This document shows, in pieces, positions 1 through 46,801 of a DNA stretch of 64,000 nucleotides. The notes beneath the pieces were generated by a model. The model had not been told where the DNA came from and did no database searches. It saw only the letters and a program-made list of their open reading frames with translations. This DNA is from a bacterium (GTDB lineage: Bacteria > Sysuimicrobiota > Sysuimicrobiia > Sysuimicrobiales > Humicultoraceae). Location: contig JAVHLI010000001.1 in the NCBI GenBank assembly GCA_031082185.1, forward strand, positions 199,127-263,126, written 5' to 3'. The translations under genes and the position numbers were made by a program. Numbering within the stretch: position 1 is the first letter of the stretch; each line of letters opens with the position of its first letter.

Positions 1-1
1 C

Positions 2-190
2 AAGGCCTGCGGGGAGGATACGCAGCGGACCCTCCAGATCCTGGAGCACCTCAGCCCGCGGCAGGTCGAGGCGGCTCTCCGGTACTCCCGCGCTTACCCC
101 GAGGAGATCGAGGCGCTGGTGGCTGAGAACGAGCGCTCACCAGACGAGTGGGAGCGCCTGTATCCGCATCTGACGCCGCTCAGTGGGTAG
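2..190 (+). CDS. DUF433-family protein, C-terminal fragment (5' end lies outside window)
   Basis: Frame 2 translates to ...[44 protein letters not shown]. Same C-terminal pattern (AYPEEIE..RRNE) as the DUF433 proteins at 639-1055 and 44230-44706. Confidence 0.5.
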   Translation, partial: KACGEDTQRTLQILEHLSPRQVEAALRYSRAYPEEIEALVAENERSPDEWERLYPHLTPLSG

Positions 191-590
191 CAACAGCGTA
201 GGTGCCGGTTTCCCCGGGGAGCTGCCTGTGCGGCTGTGGCTTGACGAGATGGTCCCCGCCGAAGTCGCCCGCCAGTTGCGCCGGCGCGGGTACGACGTGC
301 AGGCCGCGCAGGAACCGGAGCACCGGTGGGCGTGGGGCCTGGAGGACGCCGAGCAACTCCAGGCCGCGACGCGGGTTGGGCGGGCCCTGGTCACCTTCAA
401 CCTGCGGGACTTCGTCCCGCTGTCCCAGCAGTGGGCCGAAGCCGGCAGGGAGCACGCAGGCATCATCCTGGTCCACGCCAGGGCGGTTCAGCCCGGTGAG
501 ATCGGCGCGCTGGTCCAGAGACTGGCTGCGCTGCTCGACGCCACTCAGGATGATCAGGGGCTGGAGAACCGCGTCGTCTTCCTGCGTTAA
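183..590 (+). CDS. DUF5615 (PIN-like, COG4634-type) putative toxin partner of DUF433
   Basis: Paralogous to 1056-1430 and 44751-45050 (..RGYDV/AV.A....L..A.D...L..A..EGR.L.T.N..DF..L). True start probably an internal GTG near 216-228. Confidence 0.55.
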   Translation: MGSNSVGAGFPGELPVRLWLDEMVPAEVARQLRRRGYDVQAAQEPEHRWAWGLEDAEQLQAATRVGRALVTFNLRDFVPLSQQWAEAGREHAGIILVHARAVQPGEIGALVQRLAALLDATQDDQGLENRVVFLR

Positions 591-608
591 GAACCCCGCA
601 GGCGAAGT

Positions 609-618
609 GTGCTACAAT
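609..618 (+). promoter_or_regulatory. extended -10 element TGcTACAAT
   Basis: Sequence gtgTGcTACAATgtagcgtaGAGGTGacaagaATG. A TGn-TACAAT box 21 nt upstream of the ATG at 639, with SD-like GAGGTG. Confidence 0.4.
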
Positions 619-638
619 GTAGCGTAGAGGTGACAAGA

Positions 639-1055
639 ATGCCTGTGGTTAGGCCGGTTTCAGTGAGGCTAGAGCGAGAGGTCGACGCCGAGGTGCGCGA
701 TATTGCCCGCCGGGACGACAGGCCCCTCGGCCGGGTCATCAACGAGCTCCTTGACCGTGCGCTGCGAATGCGGCGGTTTCCGGGAGTCGTCTTCGTAGAT
801 GGGCCGGCCGGGGTCAGAGCGCACCTCAGCGGCAGCGGGCTCGACATCTGGGAGATTGTGGCGCTGGCGCGCGCGTACGGATCCCCTGAGAAGGCCCGCG
901 AGGCGCTGCCCACATTGTCGGAAGCCGACATGCGGCTGGCCCTGGCGTATGGGGGCACCTATCCGGACGAGATCGAAGAGCGCATCCGCCGCAACGAGCG
1001 GCCCATGGAGGACCTAATGCGCGAGTACCCGTTCGTTCGGAAGATCCCCGCGTAG
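639..1055 (+). CDS. DUF433-domain protein (putative antitoxin/regulator of DUF5615 partner)
   Basis: Translation MPVVRPVSVRLEREVDAEVRDIARRDDRPLGRVINELLDRAL...GSGLDIWEIV...YPDEIEERIRRNER. RHH-like N-terminus plus DUF433 core. ORF track calls start at 609, but the -10 box overlaps it, so the ATG at 639 is preferred. Confidence 0.55.
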   Translation: MPVVRPVSVRLEREVDAEVRDIARRDDRPLGRVINELLDRALRMRRFPGVVFVDGPAGVRAHLSGSGLDIWEIVALARAYGSPEKAREALPTLSEADMRLALAYGGTYPDEIEERIRRNERPMEDLMREYPFVRKIPA

Positions 1056-1430
1056 GTGCCGCCTCGCCTGCTGCTCGATGTTCACTTCTCACGAGCCGTC
1101 GCCTACGCGCTCCGTTCCCGAGGATTTGACGCCGTGGCTGCTCAGGACGATGCCTTGCTCCGCAGCCGCAGCGACGAGCACCTGCTGGCAGCGGCTGCCG
1201 AGCAACGGCGCGCGGTGGTCACGTACAACATCAACGATTTCGTCACCTTGGCGCGCGCGTGGGTTATGGGTGAACGCGGGCACTTTGGGATTGTACTGGT
1301 GCACCCTGGAACGATCGCCCAGGCAGACATCGGAGGGCAGGCACGAGCCCTTGAGCACCTCCTGGCGTCACTTCCCACAGAGGACGCGCTCAGGGGCGTG
1401 ACGGTGTTTCTCGGGAAGCCCGATCTCTAG
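1056..1430 (+). CDS. DUF5615 (PIN-like) putative toxin
   Basis: MPPRLLLDVHFSRAVAYALRSRGFDAV...VVTYNINDFVTLA... Immediately follows the DUF433 gene with a 1-nt gap (stop/start coupling). Confidence 0.55.
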   Translation: MPPRLLLDVHFSRAVAYALRSRGFDAVAAQDDALLRSRSDEHLLAAAAEQRRAVVTYNINDFVTLARAWVMGERGHFGIVLVHPGTIAQADIGGQARALEHLLASLPTEDALRGVTVFLGKPDL

Positions 1431-1703
1431 AAACGGCCTTCCTGGTCCGAACTCCCCCGTCCCCGTCCCTGGACCTCGTCCGCGCTTCGCCTTCGGCTAT
1501 CCAGATTGGGTGGCCCTGTAGATCTTGCTCCAGTGTCCAACGAGATGGACGATGACAGTCTGCTCAGGTCGCCGCCGAGAGGCTCAGGGGCAAGACAATC
1601 CCTCACCAGGCCCACCCGGCCCTCTTTGCAACTTCCTGCCGCAGGATAGCCGGGCAGGAAAGCGGAAACAACGTCCTGCCGAAGCACTCCCTGAGGAGAG
1701 AAG

Positions 1704-3674: not shown

Positions 3675-3953
3675 ATGCGTACTTACGCTCGTACGACGAA
3701 GGCCAAGATAACCCTGACGCTGAGCTCTGATGTGGTATGTCAGCTCGACGCTCTGGCACGCGCGCCGCAATCTCGCTCTCGTAGCCATCTTGTGGAAGAG
3801 GCTCTGCGTCGGTGGCTTGACGAACGCGTCCAGGAGAATATCGAGCAGCAGACTGAGGAGTACTACGGCTCTCTATCGCCCGCCGAGCGCGAACAAGACA
3901 GAGAGTGGGCCGCACTCGCAGCCGAGGCAGCCCGACAACTGTGGGACAAGTAA
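3675..3953 (+). CDS. ribbon-helix-helix (CopG/MazE-like) antitoxin
   Basis: MRTYARTTKAKITLTLSSDVVCQLDALA...SRSHLVEEALRRWL. Precedes the MazF gene by 6 nt. Confidence 0.6.
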   Translation: MRTYARTTKAKITLTLSSDVVCQLDALARAPQSRSRSHLVEEALRRWLDERVQENIEQQTEEYYGSLSPAEREQDREWAALAAEAARQLWDK

Positions 3954-3959
3954 CGCTCC

Positions 3960-4307
3960 GTGTCGTATCCACGCCGAGGTGAGATCTACCTGGTCACCCT
4001 ACCCGGGCACCCTGCCGATCCTAAGGCGCGACCCGCCCTGATCGTGTCAATGGACGTCCGTAACCGCCTGGCGAATGATGTGATGGTGGTGCCGCTGTCC
4101 ACGACTCTCCGCGCGGCCCCGACCCACGTCGAACTGCCCGCAGGGGAAGGTGGCCTGCGGGAAACTTCGATGGCCAAGTGCGAGCAGGTAACCACCCTGG
4201 ATAAGTCGTTCCTGATTCGTGGCCCCTTCGCTGGAACCATCAGTCCCGCGCTCATGCGGGAAATCGAAAAAGCGATCCAGCGGGCTATTGGCATTCCCGT
4301 CGCGTGA
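3960..4307 (+). CDS. mazF: MazF/PemK-family endoribonuclease toxin
   Basis: RRGEIYLVTL.....KARPALIVSMDVRNRLANDVMVVPLST. Classic PemK/MazF N-terminal pattern. Confidence 0.7.
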   Translation: MSYPRRGEIYLVTLPGHPADPKARPALIVSMDVRNRLANDVMVVPLSTTLRAAPTHVELPAGEGGLRETSMAKCEQVTTLDKSFLIRGPFAGTISPALMREIEKAIQRAIGIPVA

Positions 4308-4392
4308 CCGGCGAAATCCGGCGGCATTGGGGTAGCCCTGAGGAGTAGTGCTTCTCTCCGGTGCGCCACTTGCTCACCACCTCCCGCCGGGT

Positions 4393-4803
4393 CTAAGCGA
4401 AGCTGCGCAGACCGAGGCGCAGGACGCGGCGTCACTCGGCGTGGTCGGAGACCAGAAAGGTCGCCGAGCGCCTGAGGCGGAGGAAGCGCGCCGCGGGCAC
4501 CGCCATGAACCTGGCGAGGAGGCGCTCGACCGCCGACTCGCTGATGCGCAGCGCGTCCATGAGCTGGTTGACAATGTGGACCACGTCGTACATGGCGTAC
4601 CCAAGGCTCTTGGCCGGGATGGCGCGGGGGTCGGCAAGGTTGATCGAGTCTATGGGATGGCGGGAAACCGGTACCGCGAAGCGGGTCTCCGTGACGATCT
4701 CCTCGTCGTCGTAGGCCAGGACCGTGGTGTGCCGGGTGCGCACGGTGTCGCCGTTGACCCCGTCCAGATCTATGCTGTAGGATTCATACAGGGTCATGTG
4801 CAC
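4393..4803 (-). pseudogene. partial, internally deleted copy of the YjbQ-like fusion gene at 8988-10358
   Basis: DNA at 4393-4790 matches 8990-9660, with two internal deletions bounded by short direct repeats (e.g. gggggtcggc). Translation matches the C-terminal 50 aa (..AIPAKSLGYAMYDVVHIVNQLMDALRISESAVERLLARFMAVPAARFLRL.RSATFLVSDHAE) and the ..MDLDGVNGDT.RTRHTTVLAYDDEE.. block. Confidence 0.7.
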
Positions 4804-4830
4804 ACGACACTGCAGAAGGGACGAGAGGCC

Positions 4831-8987: not shown

Positions 8988-10358
8988 CTAAGTGAAGCTG
9001 CGCAGACCGAGGCGCAGGACGCGGCGTCGCTCGGCGCTTGCCGACCACTGGAGGAGGATCGGACTCTGGTAGCGCCCCTGGACGAGGGCCCCGCGCCCGG
9101 GCTCGGCGTGGTCGGAGACCAGAAAGGTCGCCGAGCGCTTGAGGCGGAGGAAGCGCGCCGCGGGCACCGCCATGAACCTGGCGAGGAGGCGCTCGACCGC
9201 CGACTCGCTGATGCGCAGCGCGTCCATGAGCTGGTTGACAATGTGGACCACGTCGTACATGGCGTACCCAAGGCTCTTGGCCGGGATGGCGCGGGGGTCG
9301 GCGAGGGCGCGCTTGCCGGCGCGCATCGCGAACTTGAGCGGGTCGCGCAGGACCTCGGCCAGGTCGTGCCGCATCAGGAGCGTCTCGTGCTCGTTGACCG
9401 TGAGCCCCGCGTTGTGCTCCTCAGGGTCGAGGGTGATGTCCACCCGCCCCTTGGCGACCCCGTGGCGGGCGACGAGATCCTCGATGAACGGGACCAGCCC
9501 GACCCGGGGGTCGGCGAGGTTGATCGAGTCGATGGGATGGCGGGAAACCGGTACCGCGAAGCGGGTCTCCGTGACGGTCTCCTCGTCGTCGTAGGCCAGG
9601 ACCGTGGTGTGCCGGGTGCGCGCGGTGTCGCCGTTGACCCCGTCCAGATCCATGAAGTAGACGGGCTCGCCGGGGCGGTTGATGTAGGTCACGCAGTTGA
9701 GCAGCCCGGAGCCGATGAAGGCGAGGTGGGAGTCGGCGTTCCTGGGCTCCACGCGGCGCTGCTCCTCGGAGAGTTCGGTGCGCAGGTCGAGTCGGTCGTG
9801 GCGGTAGTCGGCGTCGGGCGGGAACAGCGCCCGGAACGCCGCGATGAACGGGTCGAGTTGCTCGCGGCGGTGCTGCAGTCGCCTCGACAGGCTCTGCTCC
9901 AGGTAGCCCGCGGTGGTGTGATAGGAGCAGTACAGGGCCCGGCGGTAGGGCGTGAGGGCATCGCCGTGCGCCTGGCGCACCCTCTCGGTGACGTCGATGG
10001 CGTCGTAGCGAGTGCGCGGCCGCAGCGTGAGGTCGAGCTGGAGCGGGGCCGTGCGGCCCCGCCCACGCCGGCGGCGCACCTCACCGGTCTGACTCACCCC
10101 GACCTCCCCTCGGTCCCCGGCCTCGTGCCCCGGCCAAGCCCCCGCGGCGGCCGGAAGGCGCCCCGGGAGTGGATGTCGCGACTCGAGCGCAGCTTTCCCC
10201 CGCGTGCAAACGATAGACGGAGTCGGGCCGAAAGTCAAAGGCGTGCGGCCGAGGCGATGCTGGCAGTACTGCGCGAGGATGGCGACCCACTGGCACCGGA
10301 AGACGCTACCGCTGGCTATTCGGGGCAGATTCGCCTGAGACTCCCAAGGTCGCTGCAC
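8988..10358 (-). CDS. hypothetical fusion protein: YjbQ/UPF0047-like domain + unknown C-terminal (HTH-like) domain. True start probably internal.
   Basis: PLQLDLTLRPRTRYDAIDVTERV..YCSYHTTAGYL...NADSHLAFIGSGLL..YFMDLDGVNGDTARTRHTTVL echoes YjbQ motifs (HTTAG, D..SH....G..L). The C-terminal ~200 aa (..LRISESAVERLLARFM..) is unassigned. The N-terminal ~90 codons of the ORF abut the IS481 end and are probably non-coding. Confidence 0.4.
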   Translation of the reverse strand: MQRPWESQANLPRIASGSVFRCQWVAILAQYCQHRLGRTPLTFGPTPSIVCTRGKAALESRHPLPGRLPAAAGAWPGHEAGDRGEVGVSQTGEVRRRRGRGRTAPLQLDLTLRPRTRYDAIDVTERVRQAHGDALTPYRRALYCSYHTTAGYLEQSLSRRLQHRREQLDPFIAAFRALFPPDADYRHDRLDLRTELSEEQRRVEPRNADSHLAFIGSGLLNCVTYINRPGEPVYFMDLDGVNGDTARTRHTTVLAYDDEETVTETRFAVPVSRHPIDSINLADPRVGLVPFIEDLVARHGVAKGRVDITLDPEEHNAGLTVNEHETLLMRHDLAEVLRDPLKFAMRAGKRALADPRAIPAKSLGYAMYDVVHIVNQLMDALRISESAVERLLARFMAVPAARFLRLKRSATFLVSDHAEPGRGALVQGRYQSPILLQWSASAERRRVLRLGLRSFT

Positions 10359-12651: not shown

Positions 12652-12885
12652 CTATAGAACTCCCTTCGTAGCTCGTCCTCCGCAATGAACCGGCACGCTT
12701 CCCGTGGTGGTTACCCGTCGCAGCTTTACATGACTGCCGCGCTGGGAGTGAACCATGAAGCCAAACCTGGCCAGGATAGCGACGACCTGGTCGCCCGATA
12801 GCCGCCTAAGCCTGGGCAAAGTCAGCGGTGTCCTCACCCTCCAGATGCAGGGTGACAGCCTCCTGAAGGTTCGCAAGGGTTTCAT
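12652..12885 (-). CDS. hicA: HicA-like toxin, possibly degenerate (aberrant C-terminus; true start probably internal TTG/CTG)
   Basis: ..LSGDQVVAILARFGFMVHSQRGSHVKLRR...VPVH fits the HicA G-S-H pattern. Overlaps the hicB end. Confidence 0.4.
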   Translation of the reverse strand: MKPLRTFRRLSPCIWRVRTPLTLPRLRRLSGDQVVAILARFGFMVHSQRGSHVKLRRVTTTGSVPVHCGGRATKGVL

Positions 12886-12988
12886 CCAGCGTTTTCCCCT
12901 GAGTCACCACGGCAATCTCCACGCACTCGGCTACATAGTAGTGCTCGCCTTTTCGCACTACAGCCTTCACATTCTGTTGGAGCCTCAT
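12806..12988 (-). CDS. hicB: HicB-like antitoxin (UPF0150 fold)
   Basis: MRLQQNVKAVVRKGEHYYVAECVEIAVVTQGKTLDETLANLQEAVTLHLE. Start from Met31 of ORF 12806-13078. Confidence 0.55.
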   Translation of the reverse strand: MRLQQNVKAVVRKGEHYYVAECVEIAVVTQGKTLDETLANLQEAVTLHLEGEDTADFAQA

Positions 12989-13495
12989 ACGTTCCCCTCC
13001 TGGCAGCCGGTTGGGAAGTCCTTCACCTTCATGGCGGCCTTCTTGCGGATAAGCCTTCTCCTTGTGAAGCGGTATCATTATCCCACAACCCTGTCGTCTC
13101 GTCTCACATCAGCGGCTGACACCGCGCCCTTGGCCGCCGTAGATCAGAAAGGCGATTGGAGTTGACCCGGTTTCGAGGACACCGGCGCGGACGTATAGGG
13201 GCACCTTCACCTCGCGGTCGGCGTCGGCTGAAATACGCACTCAATATCCTTGAGCAGCCACCGCGCCCAGCAAGGCGTCCGTGGCGCCGATGTTGAGGAC
13301 GATGCCCAGGACGGTGGGTGCCGTCTCCGGGGGTCGCCCGCTTACCGACCTGCGCTGTTCAGTCTTTGGGATGGGTCCAAATCGGTCCCGGTCGTACGCC
13401 ACGGGAACGGAACTGGTTCCCCAGCGTCGATGCGCGCGACGACCATGCGGTGCCCAAGCGGCGCCAGCACTTCGGCGAACTCCCTGGCGAGTGCC

Positions 13496-13876
13496 TCAAG
13501 GTCGGCGAGGTCGGCCTTGGCGAGCCTTACGGCGTCTCCATGCCAGGACCACTACCCATGCGGCCAGGACACCAAGCGCGTTCATGAGGAGATCTACGAG
13601 TTCAGCGCTCCGGTAGGAGATGAACCACTGCGCACCTTCAAGCGCGGCGCCGTAGGTCCAGGCCAGTCCCATGGCGCGGGCGGCCGGCAGTTGGGTCTGG
13701 AGGAGAACTGTCAGAATCCCGCTGGCGGCGATATGACCCCCGGGCCCATCGAGAGGGCGAAGGGAACCAAGCCTGGGTGACGGCACCTGGGGCAGGACCG
13801 CCCCGACGACCATTACGACCATCCAGGCCGCCGTGGCCACCCTCCACCAAAAGGTCCGGGTTGAGCGTAGATGCAC
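13496..13876 (-). CDS. VanZ-like membrane protein
   Basis: Multi-TM protein with C-terminal EGAQWFISYRSAELVDLLMNALGVLAAW, matching the VanZ E..Q.f.pgR....D...N..G pattern. Confidence 0.5.
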   Translation of the reverse strand: MHLRSTRTFWWRVATAAWMVVMVVGAVLPQVPSPRLGSLRPLDGPGGHIAASGILTVLLQTQLPAARAMGLAWTYGAALEGAQWFISYRSAELVDLLMNALGVLAAWVVVLAWRRRKARQGRPRRP

Positions 13877-13902
13877 TGCTTTGGGTCTTCCCTACTTGAG
13901 AC

Positions 13903-14742
13903 TCAGCGTTCCGGTGTCTCCACGTCGAGATCCGCAGGGTAGTCCTGCTCGCCCCGATACTCGATGTTCTTGGAGACAATAGCCCTGAGGACCCGCTTGT
14001 CGTATCCGGCATGCTCCAGGGATCGCAACAGCGACAACGTGTCCTTAGGGAGGCACTTCCCAAAGAACCCACGGCTGTTGCCCCACGAGGCGGTGTGCAT
14101 GGGACCCACGCGGGGGTCCAGCGTCCACAGATCCCGGGTTTCCCAGTACGGCACGCCCCATGCGGCGCACGCCTCCCGCATCTCGTTGGCAAACATGACT
14201 TTCCACGCGATGAACTCGTTCTCGAACGCCTTCACCGCCTCAGCGACGCTGGCCGACGTCACGCGGTACTGCTTCATGGGACCGGCTATGGGGGCATACA
14301 GATCAATCACGCGCTCGCAGTCTGCCGCGTCGCCACCGAAGATGTAGAAGGGGCATTCGATCTCGTCCCGCATGAAGCCGTACGGTACCCAGTAGTGCGG
14401 CTCGCCCACGTACTCGGGGGAGAACACTATCGACTTACCCGTCTCGGCCTTGAGCCTATCGGTTGTCCCGACGGGGATGGTCGAGCGGATCAGGATCGTG
14501 TCGGCCCCGATCCATCCGACGGCCTCTTCAGCAATTGATGTATCGCACGAGCCGTCCGGGCGCATGGGCGTGGGCACGCAGACCGCAACCATAGCACACT
14601 CGTTGATGTCGTTCCGGCTGCTGTGCCCCTTCGGTGGGTCGTAGATGGTCACCTCATACCGACGCCCGAAGAACGCCTCCATCGCCTGCCCGACGCGCCC
14701 ATACCCTACGATGCCGATGCGAGCCATGCTGACCCGAGACAC
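13903..14742 (-). CDS. short UDP-glucose/GDP-mannose dehydrogenase-family protein, copy 2 (native polysaccharide-operon context)
   Basis: 279 aa. Same motifs as 2467-3291 (GIVGYGRVGQA, VCVPTP, GKCLPKD). Downstream of the PglC-like transferase gene. Confidence 0.5.
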   Translation of the reverse strand: MSRVSMARIGIVGYGRVGQAMEAFFGRRYEVTIYDPPKGHSSRNDINECAMVAVCVPTPMRPDGSCDTSIAEEAVGWIGADTILIRSTIPVGTTDRLKAETGKSIVFSPEYVGEPHYWVPYGFMRDEIECPFYIFGGDAADCERVIDLYAPIAGPMKQYRVTSASVAEAVKAFENEFIAWKVMFANEMREACAAWGVPYWETRDLWTLDPRVGPMHTASWGNSRGFFGKCLPKDTLSLLRSLEHAGYDKRVLRAIVSKNIEYRGEQDYPADLDVETPER

Positions 14743-42626: not shown

Positions 42627-43326
42627 TGCGGAACCCCATGGCGATGGCGCCGGCGCGGTTGCGCGCCCCGGTCTTGCGCAGTATGGAGCGCACGTGGGTC
42701 TTGACGGTGGGCACAGACACTTCGAGGCGGCGCGCGATCTGGGCGTCGGTCTCCCCATCGGCGATGGCGGCGAAGATTTCTGACTCCCGCCGGCTTAGCG
42801 CATTCAGTGTGCCGGCCAGGCCATGGTTGAATTCCTCCCGAAGGCCGAGCTGTTCCGGTGAGAGGGAGCAGTACAGCACGATCCGACCCCCTGCCACCGC
42901 CCTCAGAGCCCAGACGAGAACGTCCTGGGGTGCGTCCCGATGCAGGTAGCCCCAAAGGCCGCTGTTGAGGGCCGGGCCCAGTTCCTCACCGGCGCAATCC
43001 TCGGCCAGGACCAACAGCCGGGTGTGCGGCGAAGCTTCCCGCAACTGGTGGATGTGATCCAGTAGCGGGCCGTCCAACCTGTCGGCATCCAGCACCGCAA
43101 TGTCGGGCGCGGTCCGGCGGACGAAGGCCAGGGCCTCGGGGCCGACCGCTATTGCGCCCGCGACCTCCAGGTCAGGAGCATCGCGCAGGTACGTTACGAT
43201 CGGGATTCTGAATGCGCCTGCTGCCTCCAGCATCAGGACTGAGGAGACCGCCGGCTGAGACGAGTTCGGATGTGCCTCGGTCTGTCGGTTGCTGATTTCC
43301 AATCCAGACCTCACATGAGAAGGCAT
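42613..43326 (-). CDS. NarL/FixJ-family response regulator (REC + LuxR-type HTH)
   Basis: ..DIAVLDADRLDGPLLD.....RLLVL.. (REC-like). C-terminal LSRRESEIFAAIADGETDAQIARRLEVSVPTVKTHVRSILRK. Likely start at the internal MLEAAG. Confidence 0.7.
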   Translation of the reverse strand: MPSHVRSGLEISNRQTEAHPNSSQPAVSSVLMLEAAGAFRIPIVTYLRDAPDLEVAGAIAVGPEALAFVRRTAPDIAVLDADRLDGPLLDHIHQLREASPHTRLLVLAEDCAGEELGPALNSGLWGYLHRDAPQDVLVWALRAVAGGRIVLYCSLSPEQLGLREEFNHGLAGTLNALSRRESEIFAAIADGETDAQIARRLEVSVPTVKTHVRSILRKTGARNRAGAIAMGFRNGAL

Positions 43327-43441
43327 GAGACGGCAGCAACGGGATTCGTCGAACGGATCGCATCTCCTGCTGATGGCTTAGGGGAAAACCACTATTGACA
43401 GGCCCGCCCTCATCGAATGGATGAGCAGTGCCGCTCGCAAG

Positions 43442-43828
43442 CTAATCCGTTTGCGCGAGATCGCCGGCGAGCCCGAGGGAGTCCTCCAGAGCCCGGTCAA
43501 TCCGGCGCATCACCGCCGGTGGGAACCTCCCCAGGCGGCGGACGATCTCTGTGCGCGGCACCGTGGCCACGGTCTGGCAATCCACGACGCTGTCGAGCCT
43601 GAGGCCGGCCTGCTGCCCGGCCGGGCTGTCCTTCTCCACGACCACCTTACATGGCAGCCCGGTGTGTGAGCGCGTGCTCGTGATCGCGGCGATGATGACG
43701 GCGGCGCGCCGCTGGTTGTACCGGTCGGCCTGCACCACCACCGCCGGCCGCAGCTTGCGTTGCACCTTCCCCTCAGTCAGGAACGGGAACGCGAGCAGGA
43801 CGACGTCGCCTCTGGCGATCTCCATCAC
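43442..43828 (-). CDS. mazF: MazF/PemK-family toxin
   Basis: ARGDVVLLAFPF......KLRPAVVVQADRYNQRRAAVIIAAITS. Confidence 0.7.
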   Translation of the reverse strand: MMEIARGDVVLLAFPFLTEGKVQRKLRPAVVVQADRYNQRRAAVIIAAITSTRSHTGLPCKVVVEKDSPAGQQAGLRLDSVVDCQTVATVPRTEIVRRLGRFPPAVMRRIDRALEDSLGLAGDLAQTD

Positions 43829-43831
43829 CTC

Positions 43832-44059
43832 TCAAGCCTCGCCGTAGACATCCAGCGCGGGATCGTCCCACGCCTCAGCCAGCGCCTGCTGCTGGAGCCA
43901 TAGACCTTCGGGGCCGGTCCACGGGTTCGCCATCTCGGCGAACTCGTCGGCCACGAGATCCTCGACGACCTTTCCCATAGGCCGGTTGTGCTGGGCTGCC
44001 AGCAGCCTGAGCCGCTTGTGCGCCCCCTCGGAGACATAAACTATCTTCCCGCGTGGCAT
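43832..44059 (-). CDS. MazE-like antitoxin
   Basis: MPRGKIVYVSEGAHKRLRLLAAQHNRPMGKVVEDLV. Start at Met55 of ORF 43832-44221, 4 nt upstream of mazF. Confidence 0.55.
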   Translation of the reverse strand: MPRGKIVYVSEGAHKRLRLLAAQHNRPMGKVVEDLVADEFAEMANPWTGPEGLWLQQQALAEAWDDPALDVYGEA

Positions 44060-44114
44060 TGGTACCGCCCCCCTGCCCGGTGGTTCTCTGCATAAGTACC
44101 GAAAGCAGTAGTTG

Positions 44115-44136
44115 CTGTATATGCAGTATATACTGC
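44115..44136. promoter_or_regulatory. palindromic operator candidate upstream of mazE
   Basis: ctgtatatgcaGCAGTATATACTGC. Perfect 14-bp palindrome GCAGTATATACTGC with an adjacent half-site repeat. ~60-80 bp upstream of the mazE start on the minus strand. Confidence 0.4.
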
Positions 44137-44229
44137 GCCTGAGGTTCATGCAACGCATCCGTCCTGCCTGTTCTTTGCCGTCCCCGACAGCGATCACGGA
44201 TTGACGCTCCGCGTAACCCAATGTAGTAT

Positions 44230-44706
44230 ATGTCGTACGACCGGATCCGAACCGGCCATGCGCAGCCAGGCGGGAGGGGTGGAATAATGGCCACGGTCCA
44301 AAAGAGCCTACGGATTCCCGAGGACATCGCCAAGGCTATTGAGGAGTCGGCGCAGTCCACCGGACGAGACTTCTCGGCGGTCGCGAACGAACTCCTCGCC
44401 GAAGTGATCAAGATGCGCCGCTGCCCGGGGATCCTCTTTGCGGACGGTCCTACCGGCCGAAGGGCCCGTATCGCTGGCACAGGCCTCGACGTCTGGGAGG
44501 CCATCGCCACGTACAAGAGCCTCAAGAACGATCCCGAGCGTCTCCGCCACGCCTACCACTGGCTCTCGGAGATACAACTGCGGGCTGCGCTTGGTTACTA
44601 CGTCGCCTATCCGGAAGAGATCGAAGCCCAGATCCGACGGAACGAAGCCTGGACACAGGAGCGGCTCGCGCAGCGCTATCCCTCCTTGGCGGTGCGCGGC
44701 TCCTGA
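44230..44706 (+). CDS. DUF433-domain protein (third copy). Probable start ATG at 44287.
   Basis: [22 protein letters not shown]..(RHH-like)..[29 protein letters not shown]....[15 protein letters not shown]. Confidence 0.55.
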
Positions 44707-44750
44707 AGTACTACCTGGACGAAGACCTGAGCCCCACGGTCGCCGAGCTC

Positions 44751-45050
44751 TTGCGCGCGCGAGGCGTCGATGCCGTGAGCGCACACGAAGTCGGCGCGCA
44801 AGGCCTCTCGGATCTGGAGCAGCTCGACCGGGCGGCCCGCGAAGGGCGCTGCCTCGTCACACGTAACCGGGATGACTTCATCGCGCTCACGCTGCGCTTC
44901 TTCGCCGACGGGCGCCCTCATCCGGGGGTCCTGATCGTACCCCGCACGCTCCCGGGCGACCGCTTTCAACTCCTCGCCGATGTCCTCGGCCAGCATGCGG
45001 CGCGCCACCCCGCAGGCCTCCCCCCGTACACTCTCCATTTCCTCTCCTGA
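44751..45050 (+). CDS. DUF5615 (PIN-like) putative toxin. Frame is open upstream to ~44702 (..[17 protein letters not shown]..), so the real start is probably earlier.
   Basis: ..[46 protein letters not shown].. Confidence 0.5.
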
Positions 45051-45092
45051 CGGCCCGCGACCCTCGCCGCCAGTGGAGGCGGGCTCTCGTTC

Positions 45093-45145
45093 AGTATGAC
45101 CGATTCGCGCGGTAGGAATCCCCCGGCTTCAGGTGGGGGAGGATG
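45093..45145 (+). repeat. 53-bp remnant of a mazF 3' end (..DRFAR-TAG) plus hairpin CCCCCGGCTTCAGGTGGGGG
   Basis: Identical to the sequence flanking the 170-bp insertion at 5338-5353 + 5524-5560. Confidence 0.6.
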
Positions 45146-45413
45146 TCAACACGGATACCCTGACGGTATCGTCCACGACCAAGCCGTCTGCTGCAGCGCC
45201 AATGTACTCGAGCGAGATGAGGCGTCCATGCTGGTCGAACGCTGCGGTCACCCCCTCCCGGATCTCCTCGGTGTCCGCTTCGCGTGCCTCCTCACGCAGG
45301 AGCATGTACAGAACATCCGCAGCGCGCCACCGATCACTCCACGACCGTCCCTGAGCGCCTTCTGCCGCACCCGTCCACCCGGTCCGGCTTGACGATTCGT
45401 AACATCGACCCAC
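45129..45413 (-). pseudogene. truncated copy of the DUF2283 gene (cf. 6861-7091)
   Basis: ..ADVLYMLLREEAREADTEEIREGVTAAFDQHGRLISLEYIGAAADGLVVDDTVRVSV.. Lacks the MKVTYDPE start. Confidence 0.55.
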
Positions 45414-45622
45414 AAACCTACCAGCGTCTGAAAGAGCAGGCCCGGCGCCACCGCCGGTCCATCACGCAGGAAGCTGCGGTCATCATCGAGGAAGCCGTGG
45501 CGAGGGCCCAGGACCCTCAGGAGTTCTGGCGGCATGCCCGCCGAGTGCGGGAGGCTGTTCAGGCCAGGTACGGAGCGTTTCCCGACAGCGCCGAGCTCAT
45601 CCGAGAGGATCGCCGGCGGTGA
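45284..45622 (+). CDS. vapB: VapB/FitA-like antitoxin (probable start near 45385)
   Basis: ..LTIRNIDPQTYQRLKEQARRHRRSITQEAAVIIEEAV.. N-terminal extension of the ORF is doubtful. Confidence 0.5.
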   Translation: MPPHAGACTEHPQRATDHSTTVPERLLPHPSTRSGLTIRNIDPQTYQRLKEQARRHRRSITQEAAVIIEEAVARAQDPQEFWRHARRVREAVQARYGAFPDSAELIREDRRR

Positions 45623-46068
45623 CCGCTGTCCCCGCGGTGGTAGTGGACACAAGCGTCGCGGTTAAGTGGTTCTTCGACGAGCCGTACTCTCGCGAGGCCC
45701 TGCACCTGCTCGAGGCGTTCGAGCAGGGTCGGCTCAGGCCCCTGGCCCCGGACCTGATCTACGCCGAGTTCGCGAACGCGGTATGGAAGCGGGTCTCCGC
45801 GGCCCACGTGAGGCCTGAGGATGGGGAGGCGGTGATCGCGGCCTTCCTCGATCTCCCGCTGGAGGTCGTGCCCAGCCCCCTCGTGCTCCTACCGGCCTAT
45901 CGCCTGGCCCTTGAGCACAGGCAGAGCATCTACGACGCCCTGTTTCTTGCGTTGAGCCTTCAGGCTGGCGCTGATCTCGTCACGGCGGATAGGGCCTTCT
46001 ATGAGAGCATCAGCGCCGGCTTCCCTCAGGTCAGGTGGGTAGGCGACGGCGTCCGAGGAGGTGCGTGA
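45619..46068 (+). CDS. vapC: PIN-domain toxin VapC
   Basis: VVDTSVAVKWFFDE.....APDLIYAEFANAV......YDALFLALS......VTAD. 4-nt overlap with the antitoxin. Confidence 0.7.
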   Translation: MTAVPAVVVDTSVAVKWFFDEPYSREALHLLEAFEQGRLRPLAPDLIYAEFANAVWKRVSAAHVRPEDGEAVIAAFLDLPLEVVPSPLVLLPAYRLALEHRQSIYDALFLALSLQAGADLVTADRAFYESISAGFPQVRWVGDGVRGGA

Positions 46069-46108
46069 CGGCGATCGGTCCGCGCCCATGCGCGTCCGGT
46101 CCCTGCTG

Positions 46109-46801
46109 CTAGGGCTGCTCTCCTCGGAGCGCGTTCTTCTCCAAGAAGCGATCGCACGCCGCGCGCAGGGTCGTTTCGGCGTCTACCCCGGCGGCCTGGG
46201 CCAAGGCAACGACCGAGAGGAGCAGTTCCTCGACCAGCTCGCTCGGCACCTGCTCGGCCGACGCCGCATCGGCCGACGCCGCATCGAGGGCCTGCCGGAT
46301 TCCCTCCAGCGCCAGCCTGAAGTCCGGCTCGGTCTTCTCCTCTTCCTGCCGCGCAGCCCGCTCGACAATCTTCTGCGCGCGGGCCAGCGCCGGTAGCGAC
46401 GCCGGGATTCCGTCGAAGACCCCCCGCTGTGGGGCCTCGCGCCGTTTGATCTCGTGCCATTGGGTCAGGACCTCGCCCGGAGTTCCAAGAGCCGTCCCCC
46501 CGAAGACGTGCGGGTGGCGGGAGATCAGCTTGCGCACCAAGCCGTCCACGACGTCGCCCGCATCGAAGGCGCCGGTTTCTTTCGCCATTTGGCCGTGGAA
46601 GACAACTTGAAGCAGCAGGTCGCCCAGCTCGTCGCGCAGCGCGGCGGAATCACCGCGCGAGATCGCCTCCAGGGTTTCGTGGGTCTCTTCCAGCAGGTAG
46701 GGCGCCAGCGAGGCGTGCGTCTGCTCGCGATCCCACGGGCAGCCGTCAGGCCCGCGCAGGCGGGCCATCACCGCGACGAGATCCTCGAAGGTGTGCCGCA
46801 T
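46109..46801 (-). CDS. mazG: nucleoside triphosphate pyrophosphohydrolase MazG
   Basis: ..LRGPDGCPWDREQTHASLAPYLLEETHE..EA........ELGDLLLQVVF. Confidence 0.8.
   Translation of the reverse strand: MRHTFEDLVAVMARLRGPDGCPWDREQTHASLAPYLLEETHETLEAISRGDSAALRDELGDLLLQVVFHGQMAKETGAFDAGDVVDGLVRKLISRHPHVFGGTALGTPGEVLTQWHEIKRREAPQRGVFDGIPASLPALARAQKIVERAARQEEEKTEPDFRLALEGIRQALDAASADAASAEQVPSELVEELLLSVVALAQAAGVDAETTLRAACDRFLEKNALRGEQP

Follow-up and report, generated by a model that had tools for sequence, protein, structure and literature searches.

The 64,000-nucleotide (nt) stretch of contig JAVHLI010000001.1 analysed here (assembly GCA_031082185.1, positions 199,127 to 263,126; hereafter the window), from a bacterium of the Humicultoraceae, carries three copies of a two-gene cassette in which the gene for a DUF433 protein is followed by that for a DUF5615 protein. 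These cassettes are very probably three independent, anciently diverged type II toxin-antitoxin (TA) operons of the DUF433 (COG2442)-DUF5615 (COG4634) family, which is often filed under VapBC. Directly observed in the analysis were the order of the genes, the families to which they belong, the conserved pairing and residues, the predicted folds and the separate ancestry of the copies. The type II TA reading stands because of this family membership and because the pairing was conserved in every one of the loci compared.

The open reading frames (ORFs) were counted by scanning all six frames of the window with family profiles. The obtained results showed exactly three DUF5615-type and three DUF433-type ORFs, each present as an adjoining pair on the same strand, here the forward strand throughout. 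Pair 1 lies at the window edge, which cuts its antitoxin gene and leaves the last 62 codons (2 to 190), followed by a toxin of 120 amino acids (aa) read from GTG 228 (228 to 590). Pair 2 consists of an antitoxin of 138 aa (639 to 1055) and a toxin of 124 aa (1056 to 1430), and pair 3 of an antitoxin of 139 aa (44287 to 44706) and a toxin of 115 codons (44703 to 45050). With the family profiles, the toxins were matched at expect values (E) of 9e-31 to 3e-39 (2.9e-39 for pair 1), the antitoxins at 2e-59 and 9e-61 (2.4e-59 for pair 3 when read from ATG 44287) and the cut-off antitoxin fragment of pair 1 at 1.8e-11. All three toxins also scored above the gathering score of Pfam DUF5615, with E values of 9.5e-15 (pair 1), 1e-11 (pair 2) and 1.4e-11 (pair 3). 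The profile scan and Pfam thus confirmed the three copies of the cassette that a preliminary description of this DNA had reported. A search of the cassette proteins against NCBIfam returned noise only. The GC content of the cassettes was not distinguishable from that of their surroundings and did not mark them as foreign.

The conservation of the pairing was evaluated in 80 loci, which were fetched with the alignment of the three toxin paralogues alone in a scan of one genome per species. A profile built on the window antitoxins detected a DUF433-type ORF directly upstream of the toxin, on the same strand, in 80 of the 80 loci, so that the pairing expected across genomes was found in loci chosen on the toxin alone. 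The two genes met in a 4-nt overlap of the form NTGA in 53 of these loci. The lineages represented include Chloroflexota, Armatimonadota, Nitrospirota, Methylomirabilota/Rokubacteria and Planctomycetota, as well as Desulfobacterota, Actinomycetota, Gemmatimonadota, Bacteroidota and Cyanobacteria. The upstream ORF was present in a long form, with an N-terminal extension that resembles ribbon-helix-helix (RHH) domains, in 56 of the 80 loci. Among the most diverged upstream ORFs, which are of the short form, Pfam independently identified DUF433 in 23 of 24.

The window antitoxins scored 21.9-23.1 bits against Pfam DUF433 (23.0-23.1 for pair 2 and 21.9 for pair 3, with a weak match for the fragment of pair 1), which is just under the cut-off of 23.6 bits. 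The DUF433 assignment is secure despite these scores, since the Pfam family matched 27 of 27 relatives of the window antitoxins, the antitoxin family profile matched the DUF433 crystal structure 2GA1 (E 1.3e-8), and 2GA1 was the best Foldseek match of the antitoxin AlphaFold model (probability 1.00). In the pair 2 antitoxin, modelled with a predicted local distance difference test score (pLDDT) of 86, three parts were distinguished: an RHH-like N-terminus (residues ∼1-46), the DUF433 core (∼47-119) and a C-terminal tail modelled at low confidence, in which a YP is conserved. In the model of the N-terminus, two helices (13-25 and 30-46) come after a short extended segment. Its local Foldseek matches were the RHH domains of CdbA, Arc, Mycobacterium tuberculosis VapB, MatP and PutA (probability 0.47-0.96, with 0.85-0.96 for CdbA, Arc and M. 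tuberculosis VapB). The corresponding sequence matches were weak (RHH_4 E 0.02 for pair 2, CdbA E 0.14, and a weak Pfam RHH_1 hit). The RHH-like N-terminus proposed earlier found support in the model and its local RHH matches together with the weak Pfam RHH_4 and RHH_1 hits, and on the predicted structure "RHH-like" appears a fair description. The second N-terminal helix also aligned with the N-terminal helix of 2GA1, and the extension proper would accordingly be limited to ∼28 residues, comprising one strand and one helix. The complete pair 1 antitoxin gene was recovered from a public contig (L090) that is 100% identical to window positions 1-700; it occupies positions 171-590 of that contig and encodes 139 aa with an RHH-like N-terminus.

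The toxins belong to a large family, with 13,539 clusters at 50% identity (E ≤ 1e-3), and their relatives are annotated as "predicted nuclease of predicted toxin-antitoxin system" or as "DUF5615 family PIN-like protein". The latter name was given by NCBI to a protein that shares 91% identity with toxin 2. Residue conservation was counted over 159 family members and is given in the numbering of pair 2. The most conserved positions were D8 (97%), D25 (96%), D40 (99%), R52 (99%), T56 (92%), N/D58 (98%), D61 (89%), H76 (89%) and G78 (99%), and all of these were kept in the three window toxins; toxin 1 keeps D6, D23, D40, N58, D61 and H76. The alignment check for conserved acidic PIN residues that had been suggested for the family thus gave a positive outcome, with D8, D25, D40, N/D58 and D61 present in all three toxins. 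The toxin 2 model (pLDDT 93.5) is a five-stranded alpha/beta domain in which the conserved Asp sites follow strand 1, open the helix after strand 2 and follow strand 3. Below threshold, Pfam related the DUF5615 toxin to Mut7-C (E 9e-4) and PIN_10 (E 1.2e-3). When the toxin was searched against the PDB by sequence and by profile, no credible match came out. A tblastn search of toxin 2 against 72,556 plasmids also returned no match at E 1e-3, which is explained by the family being too diverged for a single-sequence search.

The computational prediction of this arrangement as a type II TA couple, cited in the preliminary description, was traced to Makarova et al. (2009; PMC2701414), who predicted a new TA family, PIN-COG2442 (DUF433), and noted that single genomes of cyanobacteria and Chloroflexi hold as many as nine of its pairs. 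COG4634 was later placed in the Mut7-C group as potential toxins (Matelska et al., 2017; PMC5499597). The name DUF5615 was not found in the literature searched. What was called COG4634, the "PIN" partner of COG2442, is now named DUF5615, and the experimental literature on PIN-COG2442 therefore applies to it; the family looks uncharacterised under the name DUF5615 because the tested systems carry the older names PIN-COG2442 and COG4634. The earlier statement that the arrangement lacks experimental characterisation consequently had to be withdrawn, given the tests of sll7033/sll7034 (DUF5615/DUF433), as summarised by Kopfmann et al. (2016), of VapBC10 and of the related Rv2019/Rv2018. Two further articles taken up as DUF433 papers (PMC7251935 and PMC10853773) turned out to concern DUF4338 and were set aside.

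Three tested systems were compared with the window cassettes. On pSYSA, a plasmid carried by Synechocystis sp. PCC 6803, sll7034 and sll7033 fall into the two Pfam families of the window cassettes, agree with them in gene order and overlap by 4 nt. Pfam assigned sll7033 to DUF5615 (E 3.7e-22) and sll7034 to DUF433 (E 5.8e-19), in agreement with the RefSeq annotation, and hhalign aligned sll7033 with the window toxin profile at a probability of 99.2 (E 6e-20). The pair is listed by Kopfmann et al. (2016; PMC4963859) among five pSYSA pairs earlier shown to inhibit growth and to be neutralised in Escherichia coli. Unlike the window cassettes, it is plasmid-borne and cyanobacterial, its toxin shares ∼36% identity over the aligned core, and sll7034 is a short form of 110 aa (a gene of 333 nt including the stop) without the extra N-terminal strand and helix. 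The second system, VapBC10 of the Synechocystis chromosome, likewise has a COG2442/DUF433 antitoxin upstream of a small PIN-like toxin. VapC10 (slr1767) arrests the growth of E. coli, and the COG2442 protein VapB10 (ssr2962) rescues it by complex formation; the genes are co-transcribed, and VapB10, which is degraded by ClpXP2, binds its own promoter and activates it (Ning et al., 2013; PMC3834315). We infer that slr1767 is a DUF5615 member from the N-terminus encoded by the cloning primer (MNIWVDA) and from the published acidic positions 6/40/61/104, which coincide with D6/D40/D61/D104 of toxin 1. VapB10 differs from the window antitoxins in being short and DUF433-only, and was reported as an activator rather than a repressor. 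In the third system, VapBC45 of M. tuberculosis (Rv2018/Rv2019), a DUF433-containing antitoxin is combined with a PIN-like toxin of the Mut7-C group. Rv2019 is a ribonuclease (RNase) sensitive to ethylenediaminetetraacetic acid (EDTA) that cuts rRNA and mRNA, arrests E. coli and M. smegmatis and is neutralised by Rv2018 (Kim et al., 2016; PMC5175181). Rv2018 carries a winged-helix-turn-helix fusion in place of the RHH-like extension (PMC2701414). Canonical VapBC modules (PF01850 with RHH, AbrB or Phd partners; for example, window 45284 to 46068) share with the cassettes the operon logic, the small size, the acidic toxin residues and, going by the predicted structure, an RHH-type N-terminus. 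They are unlike them in three respects: DUF5615 has no detectable profile similarity to the window VapC, its predicted fold retrieves no PIN structures, and the DUF433 core of the window antitoxins is absent from VapB.

A family that was predicted in 2009, is annotated automatically, counts thousands of clusters and has tested representatives makes the cassettes a routine find, and the check is mainly corrective in tying the name DUF5615 to the PIN-COG2442 literature. For TA specialists, points of interest are that the DUF5615 toxin and the DUF433-DUF5615 complex are without a solved structure, that the long-form antitoxin has an apparent candidate operator of 10-bp repeats, and that closely related contigs show toxin-first decay of modules.

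By analogy with the tested relatives, the window toxins may be expected to be toxic RNases that the antitoxin neutralises by forming a complex, and the cassettes to be autoregulated and activated in a protease-dependent way. The upstream gene would provide an antitoxin of ∼139 aa, built of an RHH-like DNA-binding module, a winged-helix-like DUF433 core and a flexible C-terminal tail, and the downstream gene a DUF5615 toxin of ∼120 aa that, as a small alpha/beta protein, would fall within the Mut7-C branch of PIN-like nucleases. Free toxin would arrest growth, most likely through metal-dependent RNA cleavage, and binding of the antitoxin would prevent this. Transcription would probably start from a promoter in which short TGTA/TGTC repeats or palindromes overlap the -10 element and serve as the antitoxin operator. 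Translation of the toxin would follow that of the antitoxin, the stop and start codons abutting in pair 2 and overlapping in pair 3.

The junctions of the three pairs are not alike (37 nt in pair 1, 0 nt in pair 2 and -4 nt in pair 3), and the tight stop-start coupling described earlier for each pair held for one of them. In pair 2, the stop TAG (1053-1055) directly abuts the toxin start GTG 1056. In pair 1, the antitoxin stop (188-190) is followed by a 37-nt spacer and then by GTG 228, which is preceded at 6 nt by a GGGGAG Shine-Dalgarno sequence and was also chosen by the gene call on L090 (120 aa); an alternative start, GTG 183, overlaps the antitoxin stop. In pair 3, the toxin starts at a CTG. 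Homology of toxin 3 (KYYLDED...) begins at 44703, where this codon overlaps the antitoxin TGA (cTGA), and its sole canonical start, TTG 44751, would cost 16 conserved residues, the first invariant Asp among them. When the junction was aligned with those of eight close relatives, all eight had ATGA, GTGA or TTGA, and CTGA occurred in the window alone. The CTG would imply either inefficient translation by re-initiating ribosomes or a start codon that was recently lost. One other locus of the set (L051) likewise lacks a canonical toxin start near this position. The toxin 3 ORF is otherwise intact, with 58-72% identity to its relatives over the full length; these relatives come from deltaproteobacterial, Methylomirabilia, Rokubacteria, Binatia and Nitrospirota metagenome-assembled genomes (MAGs). 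The long-form antitoxin of pair 3 shares 58-70% identity with antitoxins from Binatia, Nitrospirota, Methylomirabilia and deltaproteobacterial MAGs. The nearest relatives of pair 2 are Armatimonadota-labelled proteins.

For two of the antitoxins, the start codon was reconsidered. The antitoxin of pair 2 likely starts at ATG 639 and not at GTG 609, and that of pair 3 likely at ATG 44287 and not at ATG 44230, because the relatives are all 137-139 aa long and the profile alignments begin at these codons. A purine-rich Shine-Dalgarno sequence precedes both, while ATG 44230 lies directly 3' of a -10-like hexamer. The third pair, which had been placed at 44230-45050, is thus present as described, with the exception of its antitoxin start.

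The regions upstream of the antitoxin genes contained repeated elements close to promoter-like sequences. In pair 2, a perfect 6-1-6 palindrome, GCTACAaTGTAGC, lies at 611 to 623, 16 nt 5' of the antitoxin start, where it overlaps a -10-like TACAAT (613-618) and forms a candidate operator; it was conserved in a relative with 94% overall identity (L087). A sigma-70 scan of positions 1-1800 found no full site, and the generic inverted-repeat search did not pick up the short palindromes 5' of the antitoxin genes. In pair 3, TTGACG-17-TAGTAT (44201-44229) was the sole promoter-like match in 43300-46200, and the candidate operator region extends over 44201 to 44238 on the forward strand, with TGTA (44222) and TGTC (44231), in the motif stretch 44217-44238, over and just after the -10 element. 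This ATGTA..ATGTC arrangement at 10-nt spacing recurs in relatives from several phyla. The region upstream of pair 1, read from L090 (59-95), contains TTGTCA-17-TACAAT with GTTACA repeats. Across 45 upstream regions of long-form antitoxins, pairs of TGT[AC] at exactly 10-nt spacing occurred 15 times, against 0.6 expected, and ACANTGT, a motif related to the pair 2 palindrome, was present in 12 of 43 such regions, against a background of 2%. A typical layout, seen in many phyla (e.g., L018, L059, L063, L072 and L075), was TTGACN-17-TAATAT with ATGTAATATAATGTCATAC, the motifs lying over the -10 element. Judged from these sequence patterns, the 10-nt TGT[AC] repeats are likely a conserved operator of the antitoxin.

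The ancestry of the three copies was examined through their mutual identity and their rank among relatives. Within the window, the toxins are 36-38% and the antitoxins 31-42% identical to one another, and the paralogues of each window toxin take only places 105 to 331 among its fetched relatives, so that more than 100 closer relatives exist elsewhere. A recent tandem duplication of pairs 1 and 2 was ruled out by this low identity and rank, and the idea of an expanding family produced by tandem duplication was abandoned for the same reasons. The divergence and the ranks indicate separate subfamilies, which are most simply explained by independent acquisition. A tandem pair occurred in only 1 of 79 unrelated loci. 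In two related contigs, extra DUF5615 or DUF433 genes were seen a few kilobases (kb) from the pair 2 orthologue (L087, 6844-7538, reverse strand; L082, 1311-1868), and clustering of such modules seems common in this lineage.

Loss of the toxin was observed repeatedly among the relatives. Contigs L087-L089, from a close relative with 87-94% nucleotide identity, lack window positions 226-600, which is precisely toxin 1. Over ∼3727-4825 of these contigs (compared with window 1-1463), the last part of antitoxin 1 and the whole of pair 2 are kept, and the antitoxin 1 remnant has lost its stop and reads through in frame into antitoxin 2. On contig L001 (JASEHJ010000098.1), toxin 1 is broken at window position 367. 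A relative of the pair 2 antitoxin (P0278, 156 aa) is fused in frame to toxin residues 79-119, the deletion having taken the N-terminal 78 residues of the toxin with its conserved Asp, and the toxin of L034 is frameshifted. Toxin loss with the antitoxin kept would be the decay expected of an addictive module. Positions 1-6231 of L001 match the window in scattered pieces (9278-10098 at 99.6%, 367-1483 at 93%, 12687-13227 and 13785-13917), and this MAG contig has been either rearranged or chimerically assembled.

Several observations weigh against the reading of the cassettes as type II TA operons. The DUF5615 profile gave no alignment with the window's own PF01850 VapC (probability 0.25%), so that the case for a nuclease is made by Pfam similarity at clan level and by the relatives. 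Of these, Rv2019 belongs to PIN_10, a sister family of COG4634/DUF5615 (PMC5499597), and VapB10 activates its own promoter, so the sign of autoregulation is not transferable to the window. The literature search did not find long-form (RHH-like plus DUF433) antitoxins, their promoters or experiments on them. Toxin 2 carries Val at position 9, where 85% of the family has Glu, and toxin 3, without a canonical start codon, may be poorly expressed. DUF5615 could be imagined not as a PIN-type RNase and instead as a distinct small alpha/beta enzyme or binder with another target (DNA, nucleotide or protein), with DUF433 regulating in a non-classical way; the conjugation modulation reported for pRet42a would be an example of such non-TA regulation. 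This we regard as highly improbable, given the sub-threshold similarity to Mut7-C and PIN_10, the location of the conserved Asp residues where PIN-like active-site residues are expected, and the growth arrest and neutralisation recorded for VapBC10 and sll7033/34, together with the RNase activity of Rv2019. An unlikely extension is that long-form antitoxins and their DUF5615 partners form a horizontally spreading subfamily with its own 10-bp TGTA/TGTC operator and a toxin mechanism or target differing from that of VapC, given a toxin fold that lacks a solved structure and cannot be recognised as PIN; the horizontal spread would be suggested by the 58-72% identical members in Nitrospirota, Methylomirabilia, Binatia, deltaproteobacterial genomes and this genome.

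A possible, though less probable, alternative to three TA operons is that at least one module is a decaying remnant, in which the toxin is unmade or inactive while its antitoxin persists in the role of a regulator or an anti-addiction factor. The CTG of toxin 3 in place of the ATG, GTG or TTG of its eight relatives, the V9 of toxin 2 and the repeated toxin losses (L087-L089, L001, P0278 and the frameshifted L034) are what such decay would produce. They are set against three toxin ORFs that are full length, uninterrupted and equipped with D8, D25, D40, N58, D61, H76 and G78; toxin 3, moreover, keeps its identity to relatives over the whole length, and a CTG at the stop-start overlap could still serve re-initiating ribosomes. 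The preliminary description had also proposed a possibly defensive role. Under this explanation, the cassettes would be anti-phage (abortive infection) modules that release their toxin on infection, and an arms race would account for the number of copies. Some type II TA systems act in phage defence. The carrier of sll7033/34, pSYSA, has been described as a defence plasmid, and DUF433-PIN_10 pairs lie inside a restriction-modification/GmrSD island of Belliella (PMC5499597). Such a role is nevertheless very unlikely here, as none of the five proteins checked matched any of 5027 PADLOC models (E ≤ 0.1) and the neighbouring genes are of the housekeeping kind (LmeA-like, UDP-glucose dehydrogenase-like, MazG and a LuxR-type regulator) or belong to other TA modules, with no defence genes alongside. 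The copies are, in addition, old and diverged and not recently amplified, and the literature search turned up no phage assay for any family member.

The remaining features concern the surroundings of the cassettes. Pair 3 lies in the middle of an island of three type II TA modules (43442-46801). On one side, a MazF/PemK toxin (43442 to 43828) and its RHH partner (43832 to 44059) are encoded on the reverse strand; on the other, a FitA-like RHH antitoxin (45284 to 45622) is followed by a canonical PF01850 PIN VapC (45619 to 46068), and a MazG pyrophosphohydrolase (46109 to 46801, reverse strand) adjoins the island. The gene directly 3' of pair 2 (1704-2441), which seems to have no connection with the TA modules, encodes a protein whose N-terminus is hydrophobic and whose LmeA-like phospholipid-binding match is weak (E 4.8e-5, under the gathering score).

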